DNA from: Escherichia coli O157:H7
GTDB taxonomy: Bacteria > Pseudomonadota > Gammaproteobacteria > Enterobacterales > Enterobacteriaceae
Direction: 5' to 3' (one strand)
NCBI RefSeq assembly: GCF_013167455.1
Contig: NZ_CP038328.1
DNA: 64,000 bases
Below the pieces are notes generated by a model, which saw only the letters and a list, made by a program, of their open reading frames with translations, did no database searches and was not told the origin of the DNA. Numbering within the stretch: the stretch's first letter is position 1; every line of letters begins with the position of its first letter. Position numbers and translations under genes: made by a program. This document shows positions 5,554 to 23,163 of the stretch, piece by piece.

Positions 5554-5889
5554 ATGGATAAAGAACGCATCATTCAGGAATTTGTGCCCGGCAAACAGGT
5601 CACACTGGCGCATCTCATCGCGCATCCCGGCGAGGAACTGGCGAAGAAAATCGGCGTTCCGGATGCGGGCGCAATTGGCATTATGACGCTAACTCCCGGC
5701 GAAACGGCGATGATCGCCGGTGATTTAGCGCTGAAAGCCGCCGATGTGCATATCGGATTTCTCGACCGCTTCAGTGGTGCATTGGTGATTTATGGCTCGG
5801 TGGGCGCAGTAGAAGAAGCGTTATCACAAACCGTCAGTGGTTTAGGTCGCTTATTAAATTATACGCTTTGTGAAATGACCAAAAGTTAA
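5554..5889 (+). CDS. eutS: ethanolamine utilisation microcompartment shell protein EutS
   Basis: ORF track 5482..5889; 111-aa product from internal ATG at 5554 ([10 protein letters not shown]...), BMC-domain protein at head of eut operon. Confidence 0.85.
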
Positions 5890-5901
5890 TACGAGGCATT
5901 C

Positions 5902-6381
5902 ATGAAACGAATTGCGTTTGTGGGTACCGTCGGGGCAGGGAAAACAACGTTATTTAATGCGTTGCAGGGGAATTATACCCTCGCCAGAAAAACACAGGCC
6001 GTGGAATTTAATGATAAGGGCGATATTGATACGCCGGGTGAATATTTTAGCCATCCCCGCTGGTATCACGCCTTAATTACCACGCTACAGGATGTGGACA
6101 TGCTGATCTATGTCCACGGCGCGAATGACCCGGAAAGTCGGTTGCCTGCCGGGTTGCTGGATATTGGCGTCAGCAAACGGCAAATCGCCGTCATCAGTAA
6201 AACGGACATGCCGGATGCTGACGTCGCCGCAACGCGAAAGTTATTGCTTGAGACGGGCTTCGAGGAGCCGATTTTCGAGCTAAACAGCCACGACCCGCAA
6301 AGCGTGCAGCAACTGGTGGATTATCTGGCATCTCTCACCAAACAGGAGGAAGCAGGTGAAAAAACTCATCACAGCGAATGA
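5902..6381 (+). CDS. eutP: EutP, P-loop GTPase/acetate-kinase-like eut protein
   Basis: 159-aa ORF with Walker A GTVGAGKTT; operon position. Confidence 0.9.
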   Translation: MKRIAFVGTVGAGKTTLFNALQGNYTLARKTQAVEFNDKGDIDTPGEYFSHPRWYHALITTLQDVDMLIYVHGANDPESRLPAGLLDIGVSKRQIAVISKTDMPDADVAATRKLLLETGFEEPIFELNSHDPQSVQQLVDYLASLTKQEEAGEKTHHSE

Positions 6382-7057
6382 TATTCGTGAAGCACACGCG
6401 CGCGGCGAACAGGCAATGTCCGTGGTTCTGCGCGCCAGCATTATTACCCCGGAAGCCCGTGAAGTGGCGGATCTACTGGGTTTTACCATCACCGAATGTG
6501 ATGAATTGATCCCGGTAACGGCGTCCGTGCCCGCCAGCGTGCCAGCCGATAAAACCGAAAGCCAGCGCATCCGCGAAACCATTATCGCCCAGCTACCGGA
6601 AGGCCAGTTTACCGAAAGCCTGGTCGCGCAGCTGATGGAAAAAGTGATGAAGGAAAAACAGTCGCTGGAGCAGGGTGCAATGCAGCCGAGCTTCAAATCG
6701 GTGACCGGCAAAGGCGGCATCAAAGTGATTGATGGTAGCAGCGTCAAGTTTGGTCGCTTTGATGGCGCACAACCGCATTGCGTGGGCTTGACTGATCTTG
6801 TGACCGGAGACGACGGCAGCAGCATGGCCGCCGGTTTTATGCAGTGGGAGAACGCATTCTTCCCGTGGACCCTGAACTACGACGAAATCGACATGGTGCT
6901 GGAAGGGGAGCTCCATGTTCGCCACGAAGGCGAAACCATGATCGCTAAAGCAGGCGACGTGATGTTTATCCCGAAAGGCTCCAGCATCGAATTTGGTACG
7001 ACATCCAGCGTGAAATTCCTGTATGTCGCCTGGCCGGCTAACTGGCAATCCCTATGA
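6356..7057 (+). CDS. eutQ: EutQ, cupin-domain eut protein
   Basis: 233-aa ORF, GTG start overlapping eutP 3' end by 26 nt. Confidence 0.88.
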   Translation: MKKLITANDIREAHARGEQAMSVVLRASIITPEAREVADLLGFTITECDELIPVTASVPASVPADKTESQRIRETIIAQLPEGQFTESLVAQLMEKVMKEKQSLEQGAMQPSFKSVTGKGGIKVIDGSSVKFGRFDGAQPHCVGLTDLVTGDDGSSMAAGFMQWENAFFPWTLNYDEIDMVLEGELHVRHEGETMIAKAGDVMFIPKGSSIEFGTTSSVKFLYVAWPANWQSL

Positions 7058-7785
7058 AAGATTTCATCACCGAAGCATGGCTAAGAGCGAACCATACGCT
7101 CAGCGAAGGCGCAGAGATCCATCTCCCTGCGGACAGTCGCCTGACGCCCTCTGCCCGGGAGTTGCTGGAAAGCCGCCATCTGCGCATCAAGTTTATTGAC
7201 GAGCAGGGCCGCCTGTTTGTTGACGATGAACAGCAGCAGCCGCAGCCCGTTCATGGGCTAACCAGTAGCGATGAACATCCGCAGGCGTGCTGCGAACTGT
7301 GCCGCCAGCCGGTGGCAAAAAAGCCGGATACGCTGACTCACCTGTCGGCGGAAAAAATGGTCGCCAAAAGCGATCCGCGTCTGGGTTTTCGCGCAGTTCT
7401 CGACAGCACCATTGCGCTGGCAGTGTGGCTGCAAATTGAACTGGCGGAACCGCTGGGCTGCCAGGCGATTGTCGGGCTTTCTGACGAAGATCTGCACCGG
7501 CTTTCTCATCAGCCGTTGCGTTATCTTGGTCACGATCATCTGGTGCCGGAAGCAAGCCACGGGCGCGATGCGGCGTTGCTGAATCTGCTACGCACCAAAG
7601 TGCGGGAAGCCGAAACCGTAGCGGCGCAGGTGTTTATCACCCGCAGTTTTGAAGTATTACGCCCGGACATCTTGCAGGCGCTGAACCGCCTTTCCAGCAC
7701 GGTCTACGTGATGATGATCCTGAGCGTAACGAAGCAGCCGCTAACGGTGAAGCAGATCCAACAACGACTGGGGGAAACGCAATGA
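7054..7785 (+). CDS. eutT: EutT, ethanolamine corrinoid adenosyltransferase
   Basis: 243-aa [17 protein letters not shown]..., Cys-rich HPQACCELC motif; ATGA overlap with eutQ stop. True start not verified. Confidence 0.85.
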
Positions 7786-8798
7786 TTATTGAACGTTGTT
7801 GTGAACTGGCGTTGCGAGCGCCCGCCAGAGTGGTTTTTCCGGATGCGTTAGATCAACGTGTGCTGAAAGCTGCGCAATATTTACATCAACAAGGTCTGGC
7901 AACGCCCATTCTGGTCGCCAATCCGTTTGAACTTCGTCAGTTTGCGCTCAGTCACGGCGTGGCGATGGACGGGCTACAGGTGATAGATCCGCATGGCAAC
8001 CTCGCAATGCGGGAAGAATTTGCTCATCGCTGGCTGGCCCGCGCGGGCGAAAAAACGCCGCCGGATGCGCTGGAAAAACTTACCGATCCGCTGATGTTCG
8101 CCGCCGCAATGGTCAGCGCCGGTAAAGCGGATGTCTGTATCGCGGGCAACCTCTCTTCCACGGCGAATGTGCTGCGTGCCGGATTACGCATTATCGGCTT
8201 GCAGCCAGGCTGTAAAACGCTCTCATCCATTTTCCTGATGCTGCCACAGTACAGCGGTCCGGCGTTGGGCTTTGCCGATTGCAGCGTGGTACCACAGCCG
8301 ACGGCGGCGCAGCTGGCGGATATCGCGCTTGCCAGCGCCGAAACCTGGCGCGCCATCACCGGAGAAGAGCCGCGCGTGGCGATGCTGTCGTTTTCCAGTA
8401 ACGGTAGCGCCCGTCACCCCTGCGTTGCCAATGTCCAGCAGGCGACAGAAATCGTCCGTGAGCGCGCACCAAAGCTGGTAGTCGATGGCGAGTTGCAGTT
8501 TGACGCCGCCTTCGTGCCGGAAGTGGCGGCGCAAAAAGCGCCTGCCAGCCCGCTACAGGGCAAGGCCAATGTGATGGTTTTTCCGTCGCTGGAAGCCGGA
8601 AATATTGGCTACAAAATCGCACAACGACTCGGCGGATATCGTGCCGTCGGGCCATTGATACAAGGACTTGCCGCGCCGATGCACGATCTCTCTCGTGGTT
8701 GTAGTGTGCAGGAAATTATCGAGCTGGCGCTGGTGGCAGCTGTGCCGCGTCAGACAGAAGTGAACCGCGAAAGCAGTTTACAAACACTGGTTGAATGA
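7782..8798 (+). CDS. eutD: EutD phosphotransacetylase
   Basis: 338-aa PTA-family ORF; start overlaps eutT stop (ATGA). Confidence 0.9.
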
Positions 8799-8836
8799 AC
8801 GGTCCCGTTCTGGACCCTGATAAAGAGGAAAGCACA

Positions 8837-9130
8837 ATGGAAGCATTAGGAATGATCGAAACCCGGGGCCTGGTTGCACTGATTGAGGCTTCTGACGCGA
8901 TGGTGAAAGCTGCGCGCGTCAAGCTGGTTGGTGTTAAGCAGATTGGCGGCGGCCTGTGTACTGCCATGGTTCGTGGTGATGTTGCAGCCTGTAAAGCGGC
9001 GACCGATGCCGGTGCCGCAGCGGCACAGCGTATCGGCGAGCTGGTATCTGTACACGTTATCCCGCGTCCGCACGGCGACCTGGAAGAAGTGTTCCCGATC
9101 GGCCTGAAAGGCGATAGCAGCAACCTGTAA
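8837..9130 (+). CDS. eutM: EutM, major BMC shell protein
   Basis: 97-aa product [26 protein letters not shown]... (canonical BMC-H domain); SD AAGAGGA upstream of ATG 8837. Confidence 0.92.
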
Positions 9131-9236
9131 TCACCCTGTGTGACGTCGATTCGGGCGTCACGCTCTCTCATTTTTCATTTTACCTTCCGCGGAGGGTAGG
9201 GGGAGCTTTTACCTGAAATACGCCACGGAGGCGGGT

Positions 9237-9524
9237 ATGAAACTGGCAGTCGTCACTGGACAAATTGTTTGTACCGTACGCCATCACGGACTGGCGCATG
9301 ACAAATTGCTGATGGTGGAAATGATTGATCCACATGGTAATCCTGACGGGCAATGTGCCGTCGCCATCGACAATATTGGCGCGGGAACCGGGGAGTGGGT
9401 GTTGCTGGTGAGTGGCAGTTCCGCCCGCCAGGCGCATAAAAGCGAAACGTCACCGGTCGATCTGTGCGTGATTGGCATCGTCGATGAGGTGGTGTCTGGC
9501 GGTCAGGTAATTTTCCACAAATAA
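9237..9524 (+). CDS. eutN: EutN, BMC vertex (pentamer) protein
   Basis: 95-aa ORF MKLAVVTGQIVCTVRHHGL..., EutN/CcmL family. Confidence 0.9.
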   Translation: MKLAVVTGQIVCTVRHHGLAHDKLLMVEMIDPHGNPDGQCAVAIDNIGAGTGEWVLLVSGSSARQAHKSETSPVDLCVIGIVDEVVSGGQVIFHK

Positions 9525-9535
9525 GGCAGAACATC

Positions 9536-10939
9536 ATGAATCAACAGGATATTGAACAGGTGGTGAAAGCGGTACTGCTGAAAATGCAAAGCAGTGACAC
9601 GCCGCCCGCCGCCGTTCATGAGATGGGCGTTTTCGCGTCCCTGGATGACGCTGTTGCGGCAGCCAAAATTGCCCAGCAAGGGTTAAAGAGCGTGGCAATG
9701 CGCCAGTTAGCCATTGCTGCCATTCGTGAAGCAGGCGAAAAACACGCCAGAGATTTAGCGGAACTTGCCGTCAGTGAAACCGGCATGGGTCGCGTTGAAG
9801 ATAAATTTGCCAAAAACGTCGCTCAGGCACGCGGCACGCCAGGCGTTGAGTGTCTCTCTCCGCAAGTGCTGACGGGCGACAACGGCCTGACTTTAATTGA
9901 AAACGCGCCCTGGGGCGTGGTGGCTTCGGTGACGCCGTCCACTAACCCGGCGGCAACCGTAATTAATAACGCCATCAGCCTGATTGCCGCGGGCAACAGC
10001 GTCATTTTTGCCCCGCATCCGGCGGCGAAAAAAGTCTCCCAGCGGGCGATCACGCTGCTCAACCAGGCGATTGTTGCCGCAGGCGGGCCGGAAAACTTAC
10101 TGGTTACTGTGGCAAATCCGGATATCGAAACCGCGCAACGCTTGTTCAAGTTTCCGGGTATCGGCCTGCTGGTGGTGACCGGCGGCGAAGCGGTAGTAGA
10201 AGCGGCGCGTAAACACACCAATAAACGTCTGATTGCCGCAGGCGCTGGCAACCCGCCGGTAGTGGTGGATGAAACCGCTGACCTCGCCCGTGCTGCTCAG
10301 TCCATCGTCAAAGGCGCGTCTTTCGATAACAACATCATTTGTGCCGACGAAAAGGTACTGATTGTTGTTGATAGCGTAGCCGATGAACTGATGCGTCTGA
10401 TGGAAGGCCAGCACGCGGTGAAACTGACCGCAGAACAGGCGCAGCAGCTGCAACCGGTGTTGCTGAAAAATATCGACGAGCGCGGAAAAGGCACCGTCAG
10501 CCGTGACTGGGTTGGTCGCGACGCAGGCAAAATCGCGGCGGCAATCGGCCTTAAAGTTCCGCAAGAAACGCGCCTGCTGTTTGTGGAAACCACCGCAGAA
10601 CATCCGTTTGCCGTGACTGAACTGATGATGCCGGTGTTGCCCGTCGTGCGCGTCGCCAACGTGGCGGATGCCATTGCGCTAGCGGTGAAACTGGAAGGCG
10701 GTTGCCACCACACGGCGGCAATGCACTCGCGCAACATCGAAAACATGAACCAGATGGCGAATGCTATTGATACCAGCATTTTCGTTAAGAACGGACCGTG
10801 CATTGCCGGGCTGGGGCTGGGCGGGGAAGGCTGGACCACCATGACCATCACCACGCCAACCGGTGAAGGGGTGACCAGCGCGCGTACGTTTGTCCGTCTG
10901 CGTCGCTGTGTATTAGTCGATGCGTTTCGCATTGTTTAA
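9536..10939 (+). CDS. eutE: EutE, CoA-acylating acetaldehyde dehydrogenase
   Basis: 467-aa aldehyde dehydrogenase-family ORF. Confidence 0.92.
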   Translation: MNQQDIEQVVKAVLLKMQSSDTPPAAVHEMGVFASLDDAVAAAKIAQQGLKSVAMRQLAIAAIREAGEKHARDLAELAVSETGMGRVEDKFAKNVAQARGTPGVECLSPQVLTGDNGLTLIENAPWGVVASVTPSTNPAATVINNAISLIAAGNSVIFAPHPAAKKVSQRAITLLNQAIVAAGGPENLLVTVANPDIETAQRLFKFPGIGLLVVTGGEAVVEAARKHTNKRLIAAGAGNPPVVVDETADLARAAQSIVKGASFDNNIICADEKVLIVVDSVADELMRLMEGQHAVKLTAEQAQQLQPVLLKNIDERGKGTVSRDWVGRDAGKIAAAIGLKVPQETRLLFVETTAEHPFAVTELMMPVLPVVRVANVADAIALAVKLEGGCHHTAAMHSRNIENMNQMANAIDTSIFVKNGPCIAGLGLGGEGWTTMTITTPTGEGVTSARTFVRLRRCVLVDAFRIV

Positions 10940-10949
10940 GGAGTAACAG

Positions 10950-11786
10950 ATGGCGCACGACGAACAATGGCTCACCCCACGTCTGCAAACGGCGGCAACG
11001 CTGTGTAACCAGACGCCCGCCGCGACGGAATCTCCGCTGTGGCTGGGAGTGGATCTGGGCACCTGCGATGTGGTGTCGATGGTTGTCGACCGCGACGGTC
11101 AGCCAGTGGCGGTATGCCTCGACTGGGCCGATGTGGTTCGCGACGGCATCGTCTGGGATTTCTTCGGCGCGGTCACCATTGTTCGTCGCCATCTCGACAC
11201 GCTCGAGCAGCAATTCGGTCGTCGTTTTAGCCATGCGGCGACTTCATTTCCTCCAGGTACGGACCCGCGTATTTCCATCAACGTGCTGGAGTCTGCCGGG
11301 CTGGAAGTGAGCCATGTGCTGGATGAGCCAACCGCAGTCGCGGATCTGCTGCAACTGGACAACGCCGGTGTAGTGGATATCGGCGGTGGCACTACCGGCA
11401 TTGCCATCGTGAAAAAGGGCAAAGTGACGTACTCGGCGGATGAAGCCACCGGCGGACATCACATCTCTCTGACTTTCGCCGGAAATCGCCGTATTTCGCT
11501 GGAAGAGGCGGAGCAGTACAAGCGCGGTCACGGTGAAGAGATTTGGCCTACGGTGAAACCGGTGTACGAAAAAATGGCGGACATTGTCGCCCGGCATATT
11601 GAAGGGCAGGGCATTACTGATTTATGGCTGGCGGGCGGCTCCTGTATGCAACCGGGCGTGGCAGAACTGTTTCGCAAACAATTCCCGGCGTTACAGGTGC
11701 ATTTACCGCAGCACAGTTTGTTTATGACCCCGCTGGCGATCGCCAGTAGTGGGCGAGAGAAAGCGGAGGGGCTATATGCAAAATGA
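10950..11786 (+). CDS. eutJ: EutJ, Hsp70/actin-fold chaperone-like protein
   Basis: 278-aa ORF with DLGTCDV and DIGGGTTGIAIV ATPase-fold motifs. Confidence 0.9.
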   Translation: MAHDEQWLTPRLQTAATLCNQTPAATESPLWLGVDLGTCDVVSMVVDRDGQPVAVCLDWADVVRDGIVWDFFGAVTIVRRHLDTLEQQFGRRFSHAATSFPPGTDPRISINVLESAGLEVSHVLDEPTAVADLLQLDNAGVVDIGGGTTGIAIVKKGKVTYSADEATGGHHISLTFAGNRRISLEEAEQYKRGHGEEIWPTVKPVYEKMADIVARHIEGQGITDLWLAGGSCMQPGVAELFRKQFPALQVHLPQHSLFMTPLAIASSGREKAEGLYAK

Positions 11787-12963
11787 ATTGCAGACCGCGC
11801 TCTTTCAGGCGTTCGATACCCTGAATCTGCAACGGGTAAAAACATTTAGCGTTCCACCGGTGACGCTTTGCGGTCCGGGCTCGGTGAGCAGTTGCGGACA
11901 GCAAGCGCAAACGCGTGGGCTGAAACATCTGTTCGTGATGGCAGACAGCTTTTTGCATCAGGCAGGGATGACCGCCGGGCTGACGCGTAGCCTGGCCGTT
12001 AAAGGTATCGCCATGACGCTCTGGCCATGTCCGGTGGGCGAACCGTGCATTACCGACGTGTGTGCAGCCGTGGCGCAGTTGCGTGAGTCAGGTTGTGACG
12101 GGGTGATCGCATTTGGCGGCGGCTCGGTGCTGGATGCGGCGAAAGCCGTGGCGTTGCTGGTGACGAACCCGGATAGCACGCTGGCAGAGATGTCAGAAAC
12201 CAGCGTTCTGCAACCGCGCTTGCCGCTGATTGCCATTCCAACTACCGCCGGAACCGGCTCTGAAACCACCAATGTAACGGTGATTATCGACGCGGTGAGC
12301 GGGCGCAAGCAGGTGTTAGCCCATGCCTCGCTGATGCCGGATGTGGCGATCCTCGACGCCGCATTGACCGAAGGTGTGCCGTCGCATGTCACGGCGATGA
12401 CCGGCATTGATGCGTTAACCCATGCCATTGAAGCATACAGCGCCCTGAACGCTACACCGTTTACCGACAGTCTGGCGATTGGTGCCATTGCGATGATTGG
12501 CAAATCGCTGCCGAAAGCGGTGGGCTACGGTCACGACCTTGCCGCGCGCGAGAGCATGTTGCTGGCTTCATGTATGGCGGGAATGGCGTTTTCCAGTGCG
12601 GGTCTTGGGTTGTGCCACGCGATGGCGCATCAGCCGGGCGCGGCGCTGCATATTCCGCACGGTCTCGCGAACGCTATGTTGCTGCCAACGGTGATGGAGT
12701 TTAACCGGATGGTTTGTCGCGAACGCTTTAGTCAGATTGGTCGGGCACTGCGAACTAAAAAATCCGACGATCGTGACGCTATTAACGCGGTAAGTGAGCT
12801 GATTGCGGAAGTTGGGATTGGTAAACGACTGGGCGATGTTGGCGCGACATCTGCGCATTACGGTGCATGGGCGCAGGCCGCGCTGGAAGATATTTGTCTG
12901 CGCAGCAACCCGCGTACCGCCAGCCTGGAACAGCTTGTCGGCCTGTACGCAGCGGCGCAATAA
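11776..12963 (+). CDS. eutG: EutG, iron-containing alcohol dehydrogenase
   Basis: ORF track 11749..12963; start taken at ATG 11776 (MQNELQTALFQ...), overlapping eutJ 3' end. Confidence 0.9.
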   Translation: MQNELQTALFQAFDTLNLQRVKTFSVPPVTLCGPGSVSSCGQQAQTRGLKHLFVMADSFLHQAGMTAGLTRSLAVKGIAMTLWPCPVGEPCITDVCAAVAQLRESGCDGVIAFGGGSVLDAAKAVALLVTNPDSTLAEMSETSVLQPRLPLIAIPTTAGTGSETTNVTVIIDAVSGRKQVLAHASLMPDVAILDAALTEGVPSHVTAMTGIDALTHAIEAYSALNATPFTDSLAIGAIAMIGKSLPKAVGYGHDLAARESMLLASCMAGMAFSSAGLGLCHAMAHQPGAALHIPHGLANAMLLPTVMEFNRMVCRERFSQIGRALRTKKSDDRDAINAVSELIAEVGIGKRLGDVGATSAHYGAWAQAALEDICLRSNPRTASLEQLVGLYAAAQ

Positions 12964-12965
12964 AT

Positions 12966-13030
12966 GCCGCGTCTTATCCGGTCTGTGGGATTGCACATGT
13001 AGTGCGGATAAGGCTTCACGCAGCATCCGC
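12966..13030. repeat. REP-like palindromic element in eutG-eutH intergenic region
   Basis: GCCGCGTCTTATCCGG ... CGGATAAGGCTTCACGCAGCATCCGC inverted REP-type arms. Confidence 0.7.
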
Positions 13031-13062
13031 TAATAAATAACAACTAACAGGGAGTAAAGGCG

Positions 13063-14289
13063 ATGGGAATTAACGAAATCATCATGTACATCATGATGTT
13101 CTTTATGCTGATAGCTGCCGTTGACAGGATCCTGTCACAGTTCGGCGGTTCTGCTCGTTTCCTCGGTAAGTTCGGTAAAAGTATCGAAGGATCCGGCGGT
13201 CAGTTCGAAGAAGGCTTTATGGCAATGGGCGCACTGGGCCTGGCGATGGTCGGTATGACCGCGCTGGCACCGGTACTGGCTCACGTACTCGGGCCGGTAA
13301 TTATTCCGGTTTACGAAATGCTCGGCGCTAACCCATCGATGTTCGCCGGAACACTGCTGGCGTGCGATATGGGCGGCTTCTTCCTCGCCAAAGAGCTGGC
13401 GGGCGGCGACGTAGCCGCGTGGCTATACTCTGGGTTAATTCTCGGGTCGATGATGGGGCCAACGATTGTGTTTTCCATTCCGGTGGCGCTCGGCATTATC
13501 GAACCTTCTGACCGTCGTTATCTGGCGCTCGGCGTGCTGGCGGGCATTGTGACCATTCCGATTGGTTGTATCGCTGGTGGTCTGGTTGCTATGTACTCCG
13601 GTGTTCAGATCAACGGCCAGCCGGTGGAATTCACTTTCGCCCTGATCCTGATGAACATGATCCCGGTGATCATTGTTGCGATTCTGGTGGCGCTGGGGCT
13701 GAAATTCATCCCAGAAAAAATGATCAACGGCTTCCAGATCTTCGCCAAATTCCTCGTTGCATTGATCACCCTCGGTCTTGCCGCTGCGGTAGTGAAATTC
13801 CTGCTTGGCTGGGAACTGATCCCCGGTCTGGATCCTATCTTTATGGCCCCTGGCGATAAACCCGGTGAGGTGATGCGCGCCATTGAAGTTATCGGTTCTA
13901 TCTCCTGCGTTCTGTTAGGGGCGTATCCGATGGTGCTGCTGCTGACCCGCTGGTTTGAAAAACCGCTGATGAGCGTCGGTAAAGTGCTGAATATGAACAA
14001 CATCGCGGCAGCCGGCATGGTGGCAACGCTTGCCAACAACATCCCGATGTTCGGCATGATGAAGCAGATGGATACCCGCGGCAAAGTCATCAACTGCGCC
14101 TTCGCCGTTTCCGCTGCTTTCGCCCTGGGCGACCACTTAGGCTTCGCCGCTGCCAACATGAATGCCATGATCTTCCCGATGATTGTCGGCAAGTTGATCG
14201 GCGGCGTAACGGCGATTGGCGTGGCGATGATGCTGGTGCCAAAAGACGACGCGACCGCGGCTAAAACCGAAGCGGAGGCACAATCGTGA
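13063..14289 (+). CDS. eutH: EutH, ethanolamine permease
   Basis: 408-aa highly hydrophobic polytopic membrane ORF. Confidence 0.9.
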   Translation: MGINEIIMYIMMFFMLIAAVDRILSQFGGSARFLGKFGKSIEGSGGQFEEGFMAMGALGLAMVGMTALAPVLAHVLGPVIIPVYEMLGANPSMFAGTLLACDMGGFFLAKELAGGDVAAWLYSGLILGSMMGPTIVFSIPVALGIIEPSDRRYLALGVLAGIVTIPIGCIAGGLVAMYSGVQINGQPVEFTFALILMNMIPVIIVAILVALGLKFIPEKMINGFQIFAKFLVALITLGLAAAVVKFLLGWELIPGLDPIFMAPGDKPGEVMRAIEVIGSISCVLLGAYPMVLLLTRWFEKPLMSVGKVLNMNNIAAAGMVATLANNIPMFGMMKQMDTRGKVINCAFAVSAAFALGDHLGFAAANMNAMIFPMIVGKLIGGVTAIGVAMMLVPKDDATAAKTEAEAQS

Positions 14290-15689
14290 ACACTCGCCAG
14301 CTACTGAGCGTCGGTATCGATATCGGCACCACCACCACCCAGGTGATTTTCTCCCACCTGGAACTGGTTAACCGTGCGGCGGTGTCGCAGGTGCCGCGCT
14401 ACGAATTCATCAAACGCGAAATTAGCTGGCAAAGCCCGGTGTTCTTTACCCCTGTCGATAAACAGGGTGGTTTAAAAGAAGCGGAACTGAAATCGCTGAT
14501 TTTAGAGCAATATCAGGCTGCGGGCATTGCGCCGGAAAGCGTTGATTCTGGTGCCATCATCATCACCGGTGAAAGCGCGAAAACCCGCAATGCTCGCCCG
14601 GCGGTGATGGCGCTCTCTCAGTCGCTGGGCGATTTTGTCGTCGCCAGCGCCGGGCCGCACCTCGAATCCGTGATCGCCGGTCACGGTGCCGGGGCGCAAA
14701 CCCTTTCTGAACAACGGCTGTGTCGGGTACTGAATATCGACATCGGCGGTGGCACCGCGAACTACGCCCTGTTCGATGCCGGAAAAATCAGCGGCACTGC
14801 CTGCCTCAACGTCGGTGGTCGCCTGCTGGAAACCGACAGCCAGGGGCGCGTGGTTTACGCTCATAAACCGGGGCAGATGATTGTGGATGAGTGTTTCGGT
14901 GCAGGCACTGACGTCCGTTCGCTGACCGGCGCGCAGCTGGTGCAGGTTACCCGACGGATGGCAGAGCTGATTGTCGAAGTGATTGACGGAACGCTTTCGC
15001 CGCTCGCGCAGGCATTAATGCAAACCGGTTTGCTGCCCGCAGGTGTTACGCCCGAAATCATTACGCTTTCTGGCGGCGTGGGCGAATGTTATCGCCACCA
15101 GCCCGCTGACCCGTTCTGTTTTGCCGATATTGGCCCGCTACTGGCGACGGCGCTACATGACCATCCGCGCCTGCGTGAGATGAACGTGCAGTTTCCGGCG
15201 CAAACCGTGCGCGCCACGGTGATTGGCGCGGGCGCACATACCCTTTCGCTCTCTGGCAGCACAATCTGGCTGGAGGGCGTACAACTGCCGCTGCGCAATT
15301 TGCCGGTGGCGATCCCGATTGATGAAACGGATCTGGTGAGTGCCTGGCAACAGGCGCTGATTCAGCTGGATCTTGATCCCAAAACTGACGCGTACGTGCT
15401 GGCGCTTCCCGCCTCGCTGCCTGTGCGTTACGCCGCGGTACTGACGGTCATCAACGCGTTGGTCGATTTCGTCGCGCGTTTTCCGAATCCGCATCCCCTG
15501 CTGGTGGTGGCCGGGCAGGACTTTGGTAAAGCTCTGGGCATGCTGTTGCGCCCACAGCTACAACAACTCCCGTTGGCAGTCATTGACGAAGTGATTGTCC
15601 GCGCGGGGGACTATATCGACATTGGTACGCCTCTTTTTGGCGGATCGGTTGTGCCGGTGACGGTGAAATCACTCGCATTTCCTTCCTGA
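14286..15689 (+). CDS. eutA: EutA, ethanolamine ammonia-lyase reactivase
   Basis: 467-aa ORF, GTG start overlapping eutH stop; immediately followed by eutB. Confidence 0.9.
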   Translation: MNTRQLLSVGIDIGTTTTQVIFSHLELVNRAAVSQVPRYEFIKREISWQSPVFFTPVDKQGGLKEAELKSLILEQYQAAGIAPESVDSGAIIITGESAKTRNARPAVMALSQSLGDFVVASAGPHLESVIAGHGAGAQTLSEQRLCRVLNIDIGGGTANYALFDAGKISGTACLNVGGRLLETDSQGRVVYAHKPGQMIVDECFGAGTDVRSLTGAQLVQVTRRMAELIVEVIDGTLSPLAQALMQTGLLPAGVTPEIITLSGGVGECYRHQPADPFCFADIGPLLATALHDHPRLREMNVQFPAQTVRATVIGAGAHTLSLSGSTIWLEGVQLPLRNLPVAIPIDETDLVSAWQQALIQLDLDPKTDAYVLALPASLPVRYAAVLTVINALVDFVARFPNPHPLLVVAGQDFGKALGMLLRPQLQQLPLAVIDEVIVRAGDYIDIGTPLFGGSVVPVTVKSLAFPS

Positions 15690-15700
15690 GGGAACGACTT

Positions 15701-17062
15701 ATGAAACTAAAGACCACATTGTTCGGCAATGTATATCAGTTTAAGGATGTAAAAGAGGTGCTGGCTAAAGCCAACGAACTGCGTTCGGGGGATGTGCTGG
15801 CGGGCGTCGCAGCGGCAAGCTCACAGGAGCGCGTGGCGGCAAAGCAGGTGTTGTCGGAAATGACCGTAGCGGACATCCGCAATAATCCGGTGATTGCCTA
15901 TGAAGATGACTGCGTGACGCGGCTGATTCAGGACGATGTTAACGAAACGGCCTACAACCAGATTAAAAACTGGAGCATCAGCGAACTGCGTGAGTATGTG
16001 CTGAGCGATGAAACCAGCGTGGACGACATTGCCTTTACCCGCAAAGGGCTGACCTCGGAAGTGGTCGCGGCGGTAGCGAAGATTTGCTCCAACGCGGACC
16101 TGATCTACGGCGCGAAGAAAATGCCGGTAATCAAAAAGGCCAATACCACCATCGGTATTCCGGGCACCTTCAGCGCCCGTTTGCAGCCAAATGACACCCG
16201 TGACGACGTGCAAAGTATCGCCGCGCAAATCTACGAAGGGCTTTCCTTCGGGGTGGGCGATGCGGTGATCGGCGTTAACCCGGTGACTGACGACGTGGAA
16301 AACTTAAGCCGCGTGCTGGACACCATCTATGGCGTGATCGACAAATTCAACATCCCAACTCAGGGCTGCGTACTGGCGCACGTCACCACCCAGATCGAAG
16401 CGATTCGTCGCGGCGCGCCTGGCGGACTGATTTTCCAGAGTATCTGTGGCAGCGAAAAAGGGCTGAAAGAGTTTGGCGTGGAACTGGCGATGCTCGACGA
16501 AGCGCGCGCAGTGGGTGCAGAGTTCAACCGTATCGCCGGGGAAAACTGCCTCTACTTCGAAACCGGACAAGGTTCAGCGCTATCCGCTGGCGCTAACTTC
16601 GGCGCAGACCAGGTGACGATGGAAGCACGTAACTATGGGCTGGCGCGTCATTACGATCCGTTTATCGTCAACACCGTGGTCGGCTTTATTGGGCCGGAGT
16701 ATCTCTACAACGACCGCCAGATTATCCGTGCGGGCTTAGAAGATCACTTTATGGGCAAGCTGAGCGGCATCTCTATGGGCTGTGACTGCTGTTACACCAA
16801 CCACGCTGACGCTGACCAGAACCTCAACGAAAACCTGATGATCCTGCTCGCCACCGCAGGCTGCAACTACATCATGGGGATGCCGCTGGGTGATGACATC
16901 ATGCTCAACTACCAGACCACCGCATTCCACGATACCGCCACTGTGCGTCAGTTACTCAACCTGCGCCCGTCACCGGAGTTTGAACGCTGGCTGGAAAGCA
17001 TGGGCATTATGGCAAACGGTCGCCTGACCAAACGGGCGGGCGATCCGTCACTGTTCTTCTGA
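15701..17062 (+). CDS. eutB: ethanolamine ammonia-lyase large subunit
   Basis: 453-aa ORF MKLKTTLFGNVYQFKDVKEVLAKANELRSGD... Confidence 0.95.
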   Translation: MKLKTTLFGNVYQFKDVKEVLAKANELRSGDVLAGVAAASSQERVAAKQVLSEMTVADIRNNPVIAYEDDCVTRLIQDDVNETAYNQIKNWSISELREYVLSDETSVDDIAFTRKGLTSEVVAAVAKICSNADLIYGAKKMPVIKKANTTIGIPGTFSARLQPNDTRDDVQSIAAQIYEGLSFGVGDAVIGVNPVTDDVENLSRVLDTIYGVIDKFNIPTQGCVLAHVTTQIEAIRRGAPGGLIFQSICGSEKGLKEFGVELAMLDEARAVGAEFNRIAGENCLYFETGQGSALSAGANFGADQVTMEARNYGLARHYDPFIVNTVVGFIGPEYLYNDRQIIRAGLEDHFMGKLSGISMGCDCCYTNHADADQNLNENLMILLATAGCNYIMGMPLGDDIMLNYQTTAFHDTATVRQLLNLRPSPEFERWLESMGIMANGRLTKRAGDPSLFF

Positions 17063-17082
17063 TGACGCGGAGATAACACATC

Positions 17083-17970
17083 ATGGATCAAAAACAGATT
17101 GAAGAAATTGTACGCAGCGTGATGGCGTCAATGGGACAAACGGCCCCCGCGCCGTCAGAAGCAAAGTGCGCCACTACCACCTGTGCGGCACCGGTGACCT
17201 CGGAAAGCTGCGCGCTGGATTTAGGTTCTGCGGAAGCAAAAGTGTGGATTGGTGTTGAAAACCCACATCGTGCGGATGTGTTAACAGAACTGCGTCGCAG
17301 CACCGTGGCCCGCGTTTGTACCGGTCGTGCCGGTCCGCGTCCGCGTACGCTGGCGCTGCTGCGTTTCCTGGCCGATCACTCTCGTTCGAAAGATACCGTA
17401 CTGAAAGAAGTGCCGGAAGAGTGGGTGAAAGCGCAGGGCTTGCTGGAAGTACGCTCCGAAATTAGCGACAAAAATCTCTACCTGACTCGCCCGGATATGG
17501 GCCGCCGCCTGTGTGCAGAAGCTGTTGAAGCGCTGAAAGCACAGTGTGTTGCTAATCCGGACGTACAGGTCGTTATTTCTGATGGCCTGTCAACTGATGC
17601 CATCACTGTGAACTACGAAGAGATCCTGCCGCCGCTGATGGCGGGCCTGAAACAGGCCGGGCTGAAAGTCGGCACGCCATTCTTTGTTCGTTATGGTCGC
17701 GTGAAGATTGAAGATCAGATCGGTGAGATCCTCGGCGCGAAAGTAGTGATCCTGCTGGTGGGCGAACGTCCGGGGTTGGGTCAGTCAGAAAGCCTCTCCT
17801 GCTACGCCGTTTACTCGCCGCGTATGGCGACCACCGTTGAGGCCGATCGCACCTGTATCTCTAACATTCACCAGGGCGGCACGCCGCCGGTTGAAGCCGC
17901 AGCCGTCATTGTGGATTTGGCGAAACGTATGCTGGAGCAGAAAGCATCCGGCATCAACATGACCCGATAA
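17083..17970 (+). CDS. eutC: ethanolamine ammonia-lyase small subunit
   Basis: 295-aa [20 protein letters not shown]... directly after eutB. Confidence 0.95.
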
Positions 17971-17979
17971 GGAGGCATC

Positions 17980-18639
17980 ATGCCAGCTTTAGATTTGATT
18001 CGACCGTCGGTAACCGCCATGCGGGTGATTGCCTCCGTTAACGCCGATTTTGCGCGTGAACTGAAATTGCCGCCACATATTCGTAGCCTCGGTCTGATTT
18101 CTGCCGATTCTGACGACGTAACCTACATTGCGGCTGACGAAGCGACCAAACAAGCGATGGTAGAAGTGGTATATGGTCGCTCGCTGTATGCGGGCGCGGC
18201 ACACGGCCCGTCACCGACTGCCGGTGAGGTGCTGATTATGCTTGGTGGGCCAAACCCGGCGGAAGTGCGTGCCGGTCTGGATGCGATGGTTGCGCATATT
18301 GAAAATGGCGCTGCTTTCCAGTGGGCTAATGATGCGCAAGATACGGCATTCCTGGCACATGTAGTTTCGCGTACCGGTTCTTATCTCTCATCAACCGCCG
18401 GGATCACGCTTGGCGATCCGATGGCGTATCTGGTGGCACCGCCGCTGGAAGCGACCTACGGCATTGATGCAGCGTTGAAATCTGCCGACGTACAGCTGGT
18501 GACCTATGTCCCGCCACCGTCTGAAACTAACTACTCGGCAGCATTTTTAACCGGTAGCCAGGCAGCGTGTAAAGCGGCCTGTAACGCCTTTACCGATGCA
18601 GTGCTGGAAATCGCGCGTAATCCAATCCAGCGTGCGTAA
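17980..18639 (+). CDS. eutL: EutL, tandem-BMC-domain shell protein
   Basis: 219-aa ORF, operon position. Confidence 0.9.
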
Positions 18640-18651
18640 CGGAGGTTGCCA

Positions 18652-19152
18652 ATGATCAATGCACTGGGATTGCTGGAAGTGGACGGCATGGTCGCCGCGA
18701 TAGATGCAGCGGATGCCATGCTCAAAGCAGCTAACGTTCGTCTGCTCAGTCACGAAGTGCTTGACCCAGGTCGCTTAACGCTGGTGGTGGAAGGCGATCT
18801 GGCGGCGTGTCGTGCTGCGCTGGACGCAGGTTGTGCTGCCGCGATGCGTACCGGGCGTGTCATCAGCCGTAAGGAGATCGGTCGGCCAGACGATGACACC
18901 CAGTGGCTGGTTACTGGCTTTAACCGCCAGCCGAAGCAACCCGTAAAGGAACCCGACGCGCCAGTTATCGTCGCGGAATCTGCTGACGAGTTGTTGGCGC
19001 TGTTAACATCAGTACGTCAGGGAGTGACGGCAGGAGAAGTGGCTGCCCACTTTGGCTGGCCGCTGGAAAAAGCCAGAAATGCGCTCGAACAGCTCTTTTC
19101 TGCTGGGACGTTACGTAAACGCAGTAGTCGTTATCGTCTCAAGCCCCATTAA
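18652..19152 (+). CDS. eutK: EutK, BMC shell protein with C-terminal nucleic-acid-binding-like domain
   Basis: ORF track begins at a TTG (18646); ATG at 18652 gives 166 aa (MINALGLLEVDGMVAAIDAADAMLKAA...), SD ACGGAGG upstream. Confidence 0.85.
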   Translation: MINALGLLEVDGMVAAIDAADAMLKAANVRLLSHEVLDPGRLTLVVEGDLAACRAALDAGCAAAMRTGRVISRKEIGRPDDDTQWLVTGFNRQPKQPVKEPDAPVIVAESADELLALLTSVRQGVTAGEVAAHFGWPLEKARNALEQLFSAGTLRKRSSRYRLKPH

Positions 19153-19197
19153 CCTGTCGGAGGTGCCGGGTGTCCTACAACACCCGGCATTAACATC

Positions 19198-20250
19198 ATG
19201 AAAAAGACCCGTACAGCCAATTTGCACCATCTTTATCATGAACCCTTACCCGAAAACCTGAAGCTCACGCCGAAGGTCGAAGTGGATAATGTTCATCAAC
19301 GACAGACAACGGATGTCTATGAACATGCTTTAACGATTACCGCCTGGCAGCAGATTTACGATCAGCTGCATCCGGGCAAGTTTCATGGTGAATTTACGGA
19401 AATTCTACTCGATGATATTCAGGTTTTTCGTGAATACACCGGTCTGGCGCTGCGTCAGTCGTGTCTGGTCTGGCCGAACTCGTTCTGGTTTGGCATTCCG
19501 GCGACGCGCGGTGAGCAGGGATTTATCGGTTCGCAATGTCTGGGAAGCGCAGAAATAGCGACGCGCCCTGGTGGAACCGAGTTTGAATTAAGTACGCCGG
19601 ACGATTACACGATCCTGGGCGTAGTGCTTTCTGAAGATGTCATCACCCGTCAGGCTAACTTTTTGCATAATCCGGATCGGGTATTACATATGTTGCGTAG
19701 CCAGTCGGCGCTGGAAGTGAAAGAGCAGCATAAAGCCGCGCTGTGGGGCTTTGTCCAACAGGCGCTGGCGACGTTTTGCGAGAACCCGGAAAATCTCCAT
19801 CAGCCTGCAGTGCGAAAAGTGCTGGGGGATAATTTGCTAATGGCGATGGGGGCGATGCTGGAAGAAGCGCAGCCAATGGTGACGGCGGAAAGCATCAGTC
19901 ATCAGAGTTACCGTCGGTTGCTTTCCCGCGCCCGTGAATATGTGCTGGAAAACATGTCCGAACCGGTGACGGTGCTGGACTTGTGTAATCAACTGCATGT
20001 CAGCCGCCGCACGCTACAAAACGCGTTTCACGCTATTTTAGGAATTGGCCCGAACGCGTGGCTGAAACGCATTCGCCTGAACGCCGTACGCCGCGAACTG
20101 ATAAGCCCGTGGTCGCAAAGCACAACGGTAAAAGACGCCGCCATGCAGTGGGGATTCTGGCATCTGGGGCAATTTGCCACGGATTACCAGCAGCTGTTTG
20201 CCGAGAAGCCGTCGTTGACGTTGCATCAGCGGATGCGGGAATGGGGGTGA
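19198..20250 (+). CDS. eutR: EutR, AraC-family activator of the eut operon
   Basis: 350-aa ORF with C-terminal AraC-type HTH; last gene of operon. Confidence 0.9.
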
Positions 20251-22241: not shown

Positions 22242-22667
22242 ATGGAGATACGCGTATTTCGCCAGGAAGATTTCGAAGAGGTCATCACCCTTTGGGAGCG
22301 TTGCGACTTGCTGCGTCCGTGGAACGATCCGGAAATGGACATCGAGCGTAAGATGAACCATGACGTCAGTTTGTTTCTGGTCGCTGAGGTGAACGGTGAA
22401 GTGGTCGGAACGGTGATGGGCGGTTATGACGGGCATCGCGGGTCTGCTTATTATCTTGGCGTGCATCCAGAGTTTCGTGGGCGTGGGATTGCCAATGCGT
22501 TGCTTAACCGGCTGGAGAAAAAGCTGATTGCTCGCGGCTGCCCGAAAATTCAGATCAACGTGCCGGAAGATAACGACATGGTGCTCGGAATGTATGAACG
22601 CCTGGGATATGAACACGCCGACGTGCTGAGTCTGGGTAAGCGTTTGATTGAAGATGAAGAGTACTGA
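22242..22667 (+). CDS. ypeA: GNAT-family N-acetyltransferase
   Basis: ORF track 22131..22667; 141-aa product from ATG 22242 ([14 protein letters not shown]...). Confidence 0.85.
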
Positions 22668-23103: not shown

Positions 23104-23163
23104 CGGCACTTTTTGGTGAATTTGCACTCCAAGCAACGTTATTGAATAACCAAAGGAAGTGAC

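Follow-up and report, generated by a model that had tools for sequence, protein, structure and literature searches.

Start/stop overlaps in the eut and cys operons of Escherichia coli O157:H7, a conserved and normal form of operon packing, and two long eut spacers that differ in kind

In E. coli, a spacing of −4 nt, followed by one of −1 nt, is the commonest between neighboring genes; distances of −8 to +6 nt account for 707 of 2987 unidirectional pairs genome-wide (24%), those of +9 to +12 nt account for 7%, and short overlaps are overrepresented where the genes encode subunits of a complex (PMC10666635). When native E. coli pairs with the −4 geometry were tested, four of five proved strictly coupled (PMC6728339). 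Compared with these overlapping coupled pairs (Huber et al. 2019, 2023; PMC6728339, PMC10666635; reviewed in PMC12548453), eutQ/eutT, eutT/eutD, eutH/eutA, cysP/cysU, and cysU/cysW share exactly the canonical geometry. The cysU, cysW, and cysA genes, moreover, encode subunits of one ABC transporter and so belong to the class in which overlaps are enriched. Because the link of −4 and −1 overlaps with translational coupling is well known, the significance of finding them here is small.

Stem-loops within operons, acting as 3′-end barriers or leaky intrinsic terminators (e.g. pufBA/LMX and papBA), set differential expression of adjacent cistrons. REP elements are imperfect palindromes of ~35 nt with the consensus GCCGGATGCG.CG...CTTATCCGGCCTAC, and stabilization of upstream mRNA with downstream attenuation by REP/BIME is reportedly what Newbury in 1987 and Espeli in 2001 described. 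The ANTAR sites recognized in Firmicute eut operons carry a fixed hexaloop. REP/BIME elements in spacers within operons, such as that between malE and malF, are known to stabilize the upstream mRNA and attenuate downstream expression (Stern 1984 and Higgins 1988, as cited in later work).

The window analyzed is a stretch of 64,000 nucleotides of the E. coli O157 chromosome type. Gene coordinates come from the sequence and from RefSeq annotation of a genome that matched it at 100% identity in a 4-kb comparison; the overlaps, spacers, and sites described below lie on the + strand. Sequence and annotation together gave eut overlaps of −26 (eutP, 5902-6381, with eutQ, 6356-7057), −4 (eutQ with eutT, 7054-7785), −4 (eutT with eutD, 7782-8798), −11 (eutJ, 10950-11786, with eutG, 11776-12963), and −4 (eutH, 13063-14289, with eutA, 14286-15689), as well as cys overlaps of −1 (cysP, 30524-31540, with cysU, 31540-32373), −1 (cysU with cysW, 32373-33248), and −11 (cysW with cysA, 33238-34335). 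Two long eut spacers were also found, eutM–eutN (+106 nt) and eutG–eutH (+99 nt). Junction geometry is identical in the curated K-12 record NC_000913.3, and the overlaps and spacer lengths listed in an earlier note on this DNA are all exact. The range that the note assigned to them, 6356-7785, holds the first three overlaps but only three of the eight, since it spans eutQ and eutT only.

The frequency of overlaps was compared with the E. coli background. Spacings of −8 to +6 nt were not in excess in eut (3 of 16 junctions versus 24%, binomial p = 0.77), nor in eut plus cys (5 of 20, p = 0.53). Spacings of +9 to +12 nt, by contrast with their 7% background, made up 6 of 16 eut junctions (p = 4 × 10−4). 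The overlaps are real and conserved, yet they are an already-known, normal form of E. coli operon packing. The arrangement of eut and cys is very probably standard enterobacterial operon architecture, with output set gene by gene and two long spacers of differing kind. Two spacing classes typical of E. coli operons pack these genes, namely short start/stop overlaps and gaps of about +9 to +12 nt that hold the SD; the overlap class comprises −1, −4, and an additional −11/−26 type in which the RBS of the next gene lies inside the end of the preceding one.

Conservation of spacing across eut operons, which the earlier note had proposed as a check, was assessed in up to 28 species per junction, and the overlaps proved to be conserved. 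One divergent paralogous locus, from C. koseri, was excluded from the comparison (40% EutT identity, start mapping unreliable). Across the species examined, start codons and SDs were kept, with an eutS/eutP spacing of +12. At eutP/eutQ (6356..6381; eutQ GTG at 6356, eutP TGA at 6379-6381) the overlap is −26 in Escherichia and in C. sedlakii, and most of the other genera have −23. In Intestinirhabdus the two genes do not overlap, with 15 nt (+15) between the end of eutP and the start of eutQ, and both the AGGAGG and the GTG of eutQ are still present. That SD (6344..6349) is embedded in the eutP 3′ end and separated by 6 nt from the GTG; it forms an SD/anti-SD duplex of −10.3 kcal/mol, and is kept in every locus examined but one E. 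coli isolate (AGGAGA). The conserved feature at eutP/eutQ is the strong AGGAGG plus GTG site. The overlap itself is acknowledged in Salmonella work (PMC12487888), and operon engineers already allow for it.

At eutQ/eutT (ATGA, 7054..7057), no recognizable SD motif was found for eutT (duplex −2.6 kcal/mol). The ATGA is kept in Escherichia, Klebsiella, Salmonella, Pseudocitrobacter, and Pluralibacter, and becomes GTGA in Intestinirhabdus; in the C. freundii group the spacing is +9, with a new SD-like AAGGCGGA. Loci with the ATGA overlap all lack an SD, and the SD-like motif occurs exactly where the overlap is lost, a pattern in the sequences that suggests that the overlap substitutes for an SD at this junction. 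The eutT/eutD overlap (ATGA, 7782..7785) is preceded by an SD-like GGGGGAA and measures −4 in most species and −11 in four. The remaining two junctions did not vary: eutJ/eutG (11776..11786; GGAGGGG SD 5 nt upstream of the ATG) was −11, and eutH/eutA (GTGA, 14286..14289; GGAGG SD) was −4 with GTG, in every species examined.

The cys overlaps were compared with those of four other genera (Kosakonia, Buttiauxella, Pantoea, and Klebsiella), in which the −1/−1/−11 geometry recurs. The 1-nt overlap of cysP/cysU (TAATG, 31540..31540) is shared by Buttiauxella and Pantoea; for Kosakonia the database gene call makes it −1, and an in-frame GTG would give −4. That of cysU/cysW (TAATG, 32373..32373) is kept in all four, as is the −11 overlap of cysW/cysA (33238..33248) together with its AGGAGG SD. 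The SDs of cysU and cysW are weak and their start regions are buried, with opening energies of 15-18 kcal/mol (15-17 kcal/mol for cysW). A literature search on cysPUWAM coupling returned nothing specific.

These features bear on where translation of one gene might depend on that of the gene before it. Coupling, read here from the sequence only, is plausible at the SD-less or buried starts of eutT, cysU, and cysW. Translation of these genes, and probably of eutG, would most likely depend on ribosomes finishing the upstream gene, either through termination-reinitiation or through unfolding of the start region. The −26 overlap of eutP/eutQ and the −11 overlaps of eutJ/eutG and cysW/cysA fall outside the canonical −4/−1 reinitiation geometry; unlike canonical coupled pairs, the −11/−26 overlaps place the start 8-23 nt upstream of the stop and carry a strong SD, which favors independent loading. 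At eutQ, cysA, and eutA, where a strong SD lies in the overlap, most ribosomes would probably load de novo, making the overlap a by-product of the position of the upstream stop codon. At eutP/eutQ the evidence speaks against coupling as the chief route, because the AGGAGG plus GTG site persists without the overlap and because EutQ is ~14 times as abundant as EutP in K-12 (100 versus 7; PMC11334477), a ratio unlike that expected from reinitiation alone. An overlap should accordingly not be taken to imply equal or dependent expression.

The by-product idea can be extended to all of the overlaps, such that starts and SDs are selected, upstream stops drift, and the overlaps are selectively neutral results of compaction, the first stop in another frame often landing just past the next start. 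This is possible, if rather doubtful. Stops do move around fixed starts at eutP/eutQ (−26/−23/+15), eutQ/eutT (−4/+9), and eutT/eutD (−4/−11), and overlaps are no more numerous than in the genome background. Against this, eutJ/eutG and eutH/eutA are invariant in all species examined, cysU/cysW and cysW/cysA are unchanged across five genera, and eutT lacks an SD with the ATGA overlap and has an SD-like motif where the overlap is lost. Invariance is weak evidence either way, however, because dual coding also slows change. Standard operon packing, with dependence on the upstream gene at some starts and de novo loading at others, remains the preferred reading.

Published K-12 proteomics (PMC11334477) were then set beside the gene order. 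Relative abundances are 11 for EutS, 7 for EutP, 100 for EutQ, 10 for EutD, and 96 for EutM; between the two long spacers, 1 for EutN, 27 for EutE, and 7 for EutG; and past eutG–eutH, 37 for EutB, 24 for EutC, 39 for EutL, and 8 for EutK. All Eut proteins are co-induced by ethanolamine and B12 (PMC11334477), and one transcript per operon was assumed on the basis of this co-induction and of operon annotation. These protein measurements show that the overlaps do not produce equal expression of neighbors. Abundance correlated with the predicted RBS opening energy in one sequence context (12 proteins, Spearman −0.64, p = 0.024), a comparison of O157 sequence with K-12 proteomics in which iBAQ depends on both the synthesis and the stability of a protein; the correlation lost significance when the sequence context was lengthened (rho −0.44, p = 0.15). 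Protein output would be set gene by gene, mainly via RBS accessibility, rather than by overlap versus spacer. SD strength alone was also considered as a cause of Eut levels and was rejected (rho −0.06).

The eutM–eutN spacer (9131..9236) is a single-copy, conserved structured element (MFE −41.4 kcal/mol, z −2.75). Hairpin 1 pairs 9140-9147 with 9154-9161, an outer stem (9162-9169/9199-9206) encloses a second hairpin (9181-9187/9192-9198), and a small stem (9221-9224/9230-9233) lies over the eutN SD. A consensus structure from 16 sequences had 98.8% of cells paired and three pairs with two-sided, compensatory changes, with all slid controls worse; given how closely related the sequences are, the covariation is shallow. 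Stem 1 hardly varies (a single wobble position, G-U/G-C), and its loop ranges from 6 to 22 nt. Across species the z values are moderate (median −1.7, 13 of 28 below −2). The element is present in 5,407 of 5,426 genomes, at a median of one place per genome, and REP-type palindromes replace it in most of the other genera compared (Salmonella, most Klebsiella, C. amalonaticus, C. sedlakii, and Pseudocitrobacter); none of the genera examined has a short eutM–eutN junction.

Like the stem-loops of pufBA/LMX and papBA, the eutM–eutN element has a G+C-rich hairpin immediately 3′ of the gene for the most abundant shell protein, then a stretch rich in pyrimidines or U, and a large drop in the next protein (EutM:EutN 96:1 in K-12; PMC11334477). 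Hairpin 1 was the top terminator-like site in a scan of the operon (10 pairs, 6 G-C, tail TCTCTCATTT, U-tract interrupted by C), a scan that returned 19 such sites versus 16.9 in shuffles and hence no excess. Unlike a canonical terminator, its U-tract is interrupted (TCTCTCATTTTT), and eutE, eutB, and eutL are still well expressed; the hairpins are not simply a strong terminator, because EutE (27), just after eutN, far exceeds EutN (1). The element also resembles the Firmicute eut regulatory RNAs (AdoCbl riboswitch, EutV/ANTAR) in that a pair of hairpins lies between genes of a eut operon. It differs from the two-hairpin EutV/ANTAR sites in its variable loop, and the operon here is regulated by EutR, without eutV/W. 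An Rfam 15 scan of 5000-36000, on both strands at gathering scores, gave no match, including to the cobalamin riboswitch, so the long spacers are not known riboswitches or sRNAs.

This locus-specific pair of conserved stem-loops, directly 3′ of the major shell protein gene, would most likely act as a 3′-end barrier or leaky attenuator, folding around the eutN RBS. We put forward only tentatively, as something more doubtful than probable, that the double stem-loop is a cis-acting RNA element, so far undescribed, which sets shell stoichiometry (EutM:EutN ~100:1) by stabilizing or ending the eutM-proximal message and masking the eutN RBS, and that it is vital enough for REP-type palindromes to replace it elsewhere. 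The stem-loops are a candidate control point for engineering of the Eut compartment.

The eutG–eutH spacer (12964..13062) is of a different kind, comprising a probable REP/BIME unit, degenerate, with one truncated and one inverted REP; the eutH SD comes after it. The earlier note had called both long spacers structured; this holds for eutM–eutN but not for eutG–eutH, whose fold in this strain is no better than shuffles (z +0.21). The K-12 spacer has two units in 216 nt, whose sequence fits the REP consensus. In the window, the full-length consensus pattern gave no match with up to three mismatches, and eutG–eutH matches the REP 3′ core only (12999-13012, two mismatches), the left REP being truncated; REP-core matches number five in the window versus 0.23 expected. 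As at malE-malF, the core matches in the eutG–eutH and cysA–cysM spacers lie just past the stop codon. The repeat belongs to a dispersed family, found at 23,125 places in 5,425 genomes (median 4, up to 12 per genome), and, as is typical of REP/BIME, its copy number varies between strains (1, 2, 3, or 5 units in Escherichia). Spacer length is 99-474 nt in Escherichia and 27 nt in several Citrobacter species in which the repeat is absent. Unlike full REP/BIME, the unit here is degenerate, and any effect on eut mRNA would be by analogy. The spacer is probably a landing site for mobile REP/BIME palindromes with no conserved length; a long spacer that appears structured may thus be a mobile REP element. 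A literature search for REP elements in eut returned nothing specific.

These results bear on the proposal that overlaps couple neighbors for fixed protein proportions, with the spacers splitting eut into three modules (eutS-M, eutN-G, and eutH-R), which we consider unlikely. In its favor, the overlaps are conserved, the strict coupling of native −4 pairs (four of five; PMC6728339) offers a precedent, and the complex-subunit enrichment (PMC10666635) fits CysU/CysW/CysA. Eut levels clearly differ, so the uniform expression that would speak against modules was not what was found, and the 96:1 step falls across the eutM–eutN spacer, the only one of the two that behaves like a conserved locus-specific element. 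Against it, the 7:100 ratio of EutP to EutQ spans the longest overlap, abundance varies up to 14-fold or more inside each module, EutE recovers after EutN, and the pairs eutP/eutQ, eutQ/eutT, eutT/eutD, eutJ/eutG, and eutH/eutA mostly do not encode known subunits of one complex. The second boundary, eutG–eutH, coincides with a probable REP insertion site of variable length. A promoter scan gave no convincing sigma-70 promoter inside either long spacer (one site in 15 kb versus 7.9 expected, and that site within eutN), so separate transcription units starting there are not supported. The discrete expression modules suggested in the earlier note are therefore weakly supported: non-uniform levels and the eutM–eutN element agree with them, and gene-by-gene variation within modules and the REP/BIME site at the second boundary do not. 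Finally, it is highly improbable that the overlaps are artefacts of wrongly chosen start codons: the annotated starts of eutQ and eutA are GTG and eutG has an upstream in-frame GTG at 11749, but all annotated starts align at offset 0 with those of other species (N termini line up), each start except that of eutT has an SD at proper spacing, the independent curated (NC_000913.3) and PGAP annotations agree, and Salmonella geneticists take eutQ codons 1-9 as overlapping eutP (PMC12487888).

Alignment with K-12 also showed that eutT in the window carries a 72-bp in-frame deletion, giving a protein of 243 amino acids instead of 267. The junction (7445..7452) retains the surviving copy of a GGAACCG direct repeat. 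No specific report of an O157 eutT deletion came up in a literature search, and no solved structure is related by sequence to EutT. With a junction-spanning query and a strict E-value, the deletion was found in 323 of 5,426 genomes, confined to the O157:H7/O55:H7 lineage. The 24 deleted amino acids lie inside PF01923 and are nearly invariant in other genera. Judged from sequence conservation, their loss from a conserved part of the EutT adenosyltransferase may affect the coenzyme B12 supply of O157:H7/O55:H7 for ethanolamine use and EutR signaling.

All gene coordinates were taken from the RefSeq annotation of one identical genome and transferred to the window, with each codon checked. The 4 kb around the overlaps match O157-type E. 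coli chromosomes at 100% identity and were found in 5,423 of 5,426 complete E. coli genomes. The eut operon (eutSPQTDMNEJGHABCLKR, 5554-20250) is complete and uninterrupted, and cysPUWAM lies at 30524-35380. In K-12, eutA is split from eutB by the CPZ-55 prophage; the 11-nt eutA-eutB spacer (15690-15700) is intact in the window, and the 6.8-kb cryptic prophage of MG1655 (NC_000913.3 2558691-2565480) sits exactly within it.

The codon check gave a 26-nt overlap for eutP/eutQ (6356-6381, with a GTG start for eutQ), 4-nt ATGA overlaps for eutQ/eutT (7054-7057) and eutT/eutD (7782-7785), 11 nt for eutJ/eutG (11776-11786), a 4-nt GTGA overlap for eutH/eutA (14286-14289), 1-nt TAATG overlaps for cysP/cysU (31540) and cysU/cysW (32373) and 11 nt for cysW/cysA (33238-33248). 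All of these overlap lengths are exactly those of the earlier note, and the eutM-eutN (9131-9236, 106 nt) and eutG-eutH (12964-13062, 99 nt) spacers agree with its ~100 bp; its range of 6356-7785 contains three of the eight overlaps but spans eutQ and eutT only. The geometry is identical in the curated K-12 record. A properly spaced Shine-Dalgarno (SD) sequence precedes every overlapping start except that of eutT, with anti-SD duplex energies of -10.3 (eutQ, AGGAGG), -10.0 (eutG), -9.5 (eutA), -10.3 (cysA) and -8.4 kcal/mol (eutD); eutT has none (-2.6 kcal/mol). For comparison, 33 eut loci from other Escherichia, Citrobacter, Klebsiella, Salmonella, Pseudocitrobacter, Pluralibacter and Intestinirhabdus species were used, in which mapped eut starts match those of E. 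coli at offset 0. As far as sequence tells, the annotated overlapping starts are correct. Both the start/stop overlaps and their association with coupling are textbook knowledge, and the eutP/eutQ overlap is already in the literature: a Salmonella study deliberately retained eutQ codons 1-9 because of it (PMC12487888). Public databases also hold 444-490-aa "CysW" proteins (P0005, P0009, P0041) with permease and ABC ATPase domains together, which are probably cysW-cysA read-through calls from frameshifts at the 11-nt overlap.

The overlaps had been described as extensive. Among E. coli unidirectional pairs, -4 is the commonest spacing (negative values being overlaps, positive ones gaps), followed by -1 and -8, and 707 of 2,987 pairs (24%) fall between -8 and +6 (PMC10666635). 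Against this background no excess was seen in eut (3 of 16 junctions, binomial p = 0.77) or in eut and cys together (5 of 20, p = 0.53), and the overlaps therefore represent ordinary operon packing. Gaps of +9 to +12, a class absent from the earlier note, account for 203 pairs (7%) in the same background (PMC10666635) and are a more distinctive feature of eut: they occupy six of 16 junctions (S/P, N/E, E/J, A/B, C/L and L/K, spanning 5890-18651; p = 4e-4), an enrichment that is overstated because the background includes non-operon pairs.

When spacing was compared across eut operons, as the earlier note had proposed, S/P (+12), J/G (-11) and H/A (-4) were constant in every species, and N/E and A/B were +11 in nearly all. 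P/Q is -26 in Escherichia and C. sedlakii and -23 in most others, T/D is -4 (-11 in four species) and Q/T is -4 (+9 in the C. freundii group); between species, starts are fixed while stop codons shift. The cys geometry of -1/-1/-11 also occurs in Kosakonia, Buttiauxella, Pantoea and Klebsiella, the -1 of Kosakonia cysP/U being that of the database gene call (an in-frame GTG start would make it -4). In Intestinirhabdus, eutP stops 15 nt short of the eutQ start, and AGGAGG and GTG are unchanged; what is conserved at P/Q is the eutQ ribosome-binding site and not the overlap. eutT lacks an SD wherever Q/T is ATGA (GTGA in Intestinirhabdus), and an SD-like AAGGCGGA is present where the overlap is lost (+9), as would be predicted if the overlap takes the place of an SD.

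Strict coupling is the usual finding for native E. coli pairs at -4 (4 of 5, none of them eut or cys; PMC6728339), and coupling collapses at ~20 nt spacing in tested pairs, likewise not eut or cys (PMC10666635). Translational coupling, the reading first given to the overlaps, is plausible at some eut and cys junctions. By inference from sequence features, it is likely at eutT, a start with no SD (-2.6 kcal/mol), and at cysU, cysW and eutG, for whose start regions an opening cost of 15-18 kcal/mol is predicted. When K-12 W3110 was grown on ethanolamine and B12, label-free proteomics gave relative levels of EutQ 100, EutM 96, EutL 39, EutB 37, EutE 27, EutC 24, EutS 11, EutD 10, EutK 8, EutG 7, EutP 7 and EutN 1 (PMC11334477). 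EutQ is thus ~14 times EutP, a ratio to which protein stability could contribute; coupling is unlikely to be the main route at P/Q, since reinitiation alone cannot yield more downstream than upstream protein. For the 12 proteins, with O157 sequence set against K-12 proteomics, abundance correlated with predicted ribosome-binding-site opening energy (Spearman -0.64, p = 0.024), not significantly with longer sequence context (-0.44), and not with SD strength alone (-0.06). The opening-energy data fit, suggestively at best, a general view in which the output of every cistron is determined by its own initiation region. The idea of discrete expression modules (eutS-M, eutN-G and eutH-R) holds in a weak form only: expression is not uniform and a large protein step falls at the eutM-eutN spacer, but levels differ within the modules as much as between them.

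The description of the eutM-eutN spacer as structured was borne out. Its fold comprises two stem-loop units (MFE -41.4 kcal/mol; z = -2.75 relative to dinucleotide shuffles), and it contains the best terminator-like hairpin of a 15-kb operon scan. Across Escherichia, the C. freundii group and K. spallanzanii, 16 distinct sequences retain the structure. Stem 1 is almost unchanged among them, with a single G-U/G-C wobble position, whereas its loop ranges between 6 and 22 nt, and the nested stems carry both-sided changes at three pairs; 98.8% of cells are paired, against 50-67% with partners slid by 1-3 columns. The element occurs in 5,407 of 5,426 genomes as a single copy (median of one place per genome) and matches no Rfam family. 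Elsewhere, unrelated REP-type palindromes occupy the spacer (Salmonella arizonae/diarizonae, K. michiganensis/oxytoca/grimontii, C. amalonaticus, C. sedlakii and Pseudocitrobacter) or, in Intestinirhabdus, a further, different G+C-rich palindrome does. In none of the species compared is it shorter than 69 nt, and all 28 distinct spacers fold better than their own shuffles, only 13 of them with z < -2.

The eutN ribosome-binding site has an opening energy of 13 kcal/mol, with a small stem over part of the SD, and EutM:EutN is 96:1 (PMC11334477). Placed behind the gene for the major shell protein, the stem-loops would most likely act as a 3'-end barrier or a leaky attenuator, and the fold would additionally mask the eutN ribosome-binding site. 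We consider it possible, if rather doubtful, that they constitute an undescribed control element for shell-protein stoichiometry. A protein-binding inverted repeat would need fixed spacing, and the 6-22-nt loop variation argues against it and for an RNA or DNA hairpin. A strong terminator is ruled out by abundant downstream EutE, EutB and EutL (PMC11334477).

The eutG-eutH spacer, also said to be structured, folds no better than shuffles in this strain (z = +0.21). By alignment it holds one unit, its left REP truncated, versus two in K-12 (216 nt), where the unit presumably fits the REP consensus (REP/BIME being dispersed palindromic repeats). Other Escherichia species have up to 474 nt and five units, and several Citrobacter species just 27 nt with the eutH SD alone; E. 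coli genomes contain the spacer sequence at 23,125 places (median 4 per genome). Because unit number varies, the sequence is dispersed and the fold is at shuffle level, this spacer is a REP/BIME landing site rather than a conserved boundary between modules, and differs in kind from the eutM-eutN spacer. REP elements can stabilise upstream mRNA. Over the window, matches to the REP core are in excess (5 versus 0.23 expected), and one of them lies in the cysA-cysM spacer. In that spacer (34336-34468, 133 nt; overall z = -3.17), a terminator-like hairpin and its U-run (GCCCGGAGGCGCTTCCCGCGATCCGGGCTTTTT) precede a clear REP element, whose core match is at 34410-34423; cysM has a GTG start and a weak SD.

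eutT (7054-7785) encodes 243 aa, not 267: 72 bp have been lost in frame between two direct repeats of GGAACCG (junction 7445-7452), and with the frame preserved both ATGA junctions are intact. Of 5,426 complete E. coli genomes, 323 carry the deletion according to a junction-spanning 67-nt query, all at 100% identity; they are O157:H7, O55:H7 RM12579 and a few strains without a serotype in the record. In nearly all other genomes sampled eutT is 804 bp, and EutT is 264-267 aa in all other species compared. The 24 deleted residues (EPWQPWLADIRSRLGNIMRADALG), which hardly vary among five genera, fall within the Cob_adeno_trans domain, where the Pfam match shrinks from residues 95-246 to 169-222. 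No report of the deletion was found in the part of the literature that could be searched, though one may exist. In Salmonella, the housekeeping CobA enzyme can replace EutT.

In the 45-nt eutK-eutR spacer (19153-19197), a 12-bp G+C-rich hairpin (-22.7 kcal/mol, z = -4.08) ends 9 nt upstream of the eutR ATG; no SD can be recognised for eutR, and its start region is more deeply buried than any other in the operon (opening energy 16-22 kcal/mol). Together, hairpin and buried start may keep the eutR regulator low. Outside the two operons, ypeA/yfeZ overlap by 14 nt on the same strand (22654-22667). Coordinates derived from NZ_CP022050.2 lose their fit from ~49800 on, near IS200/IS605 tnpA - tnpB, so that the window and that record differ there by an insertion or deletion. 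The matching O157 record annotates yfeK (35383-35750, minus strand) as a frameshifted pseudogene, and the window's copy contains an internal stop.
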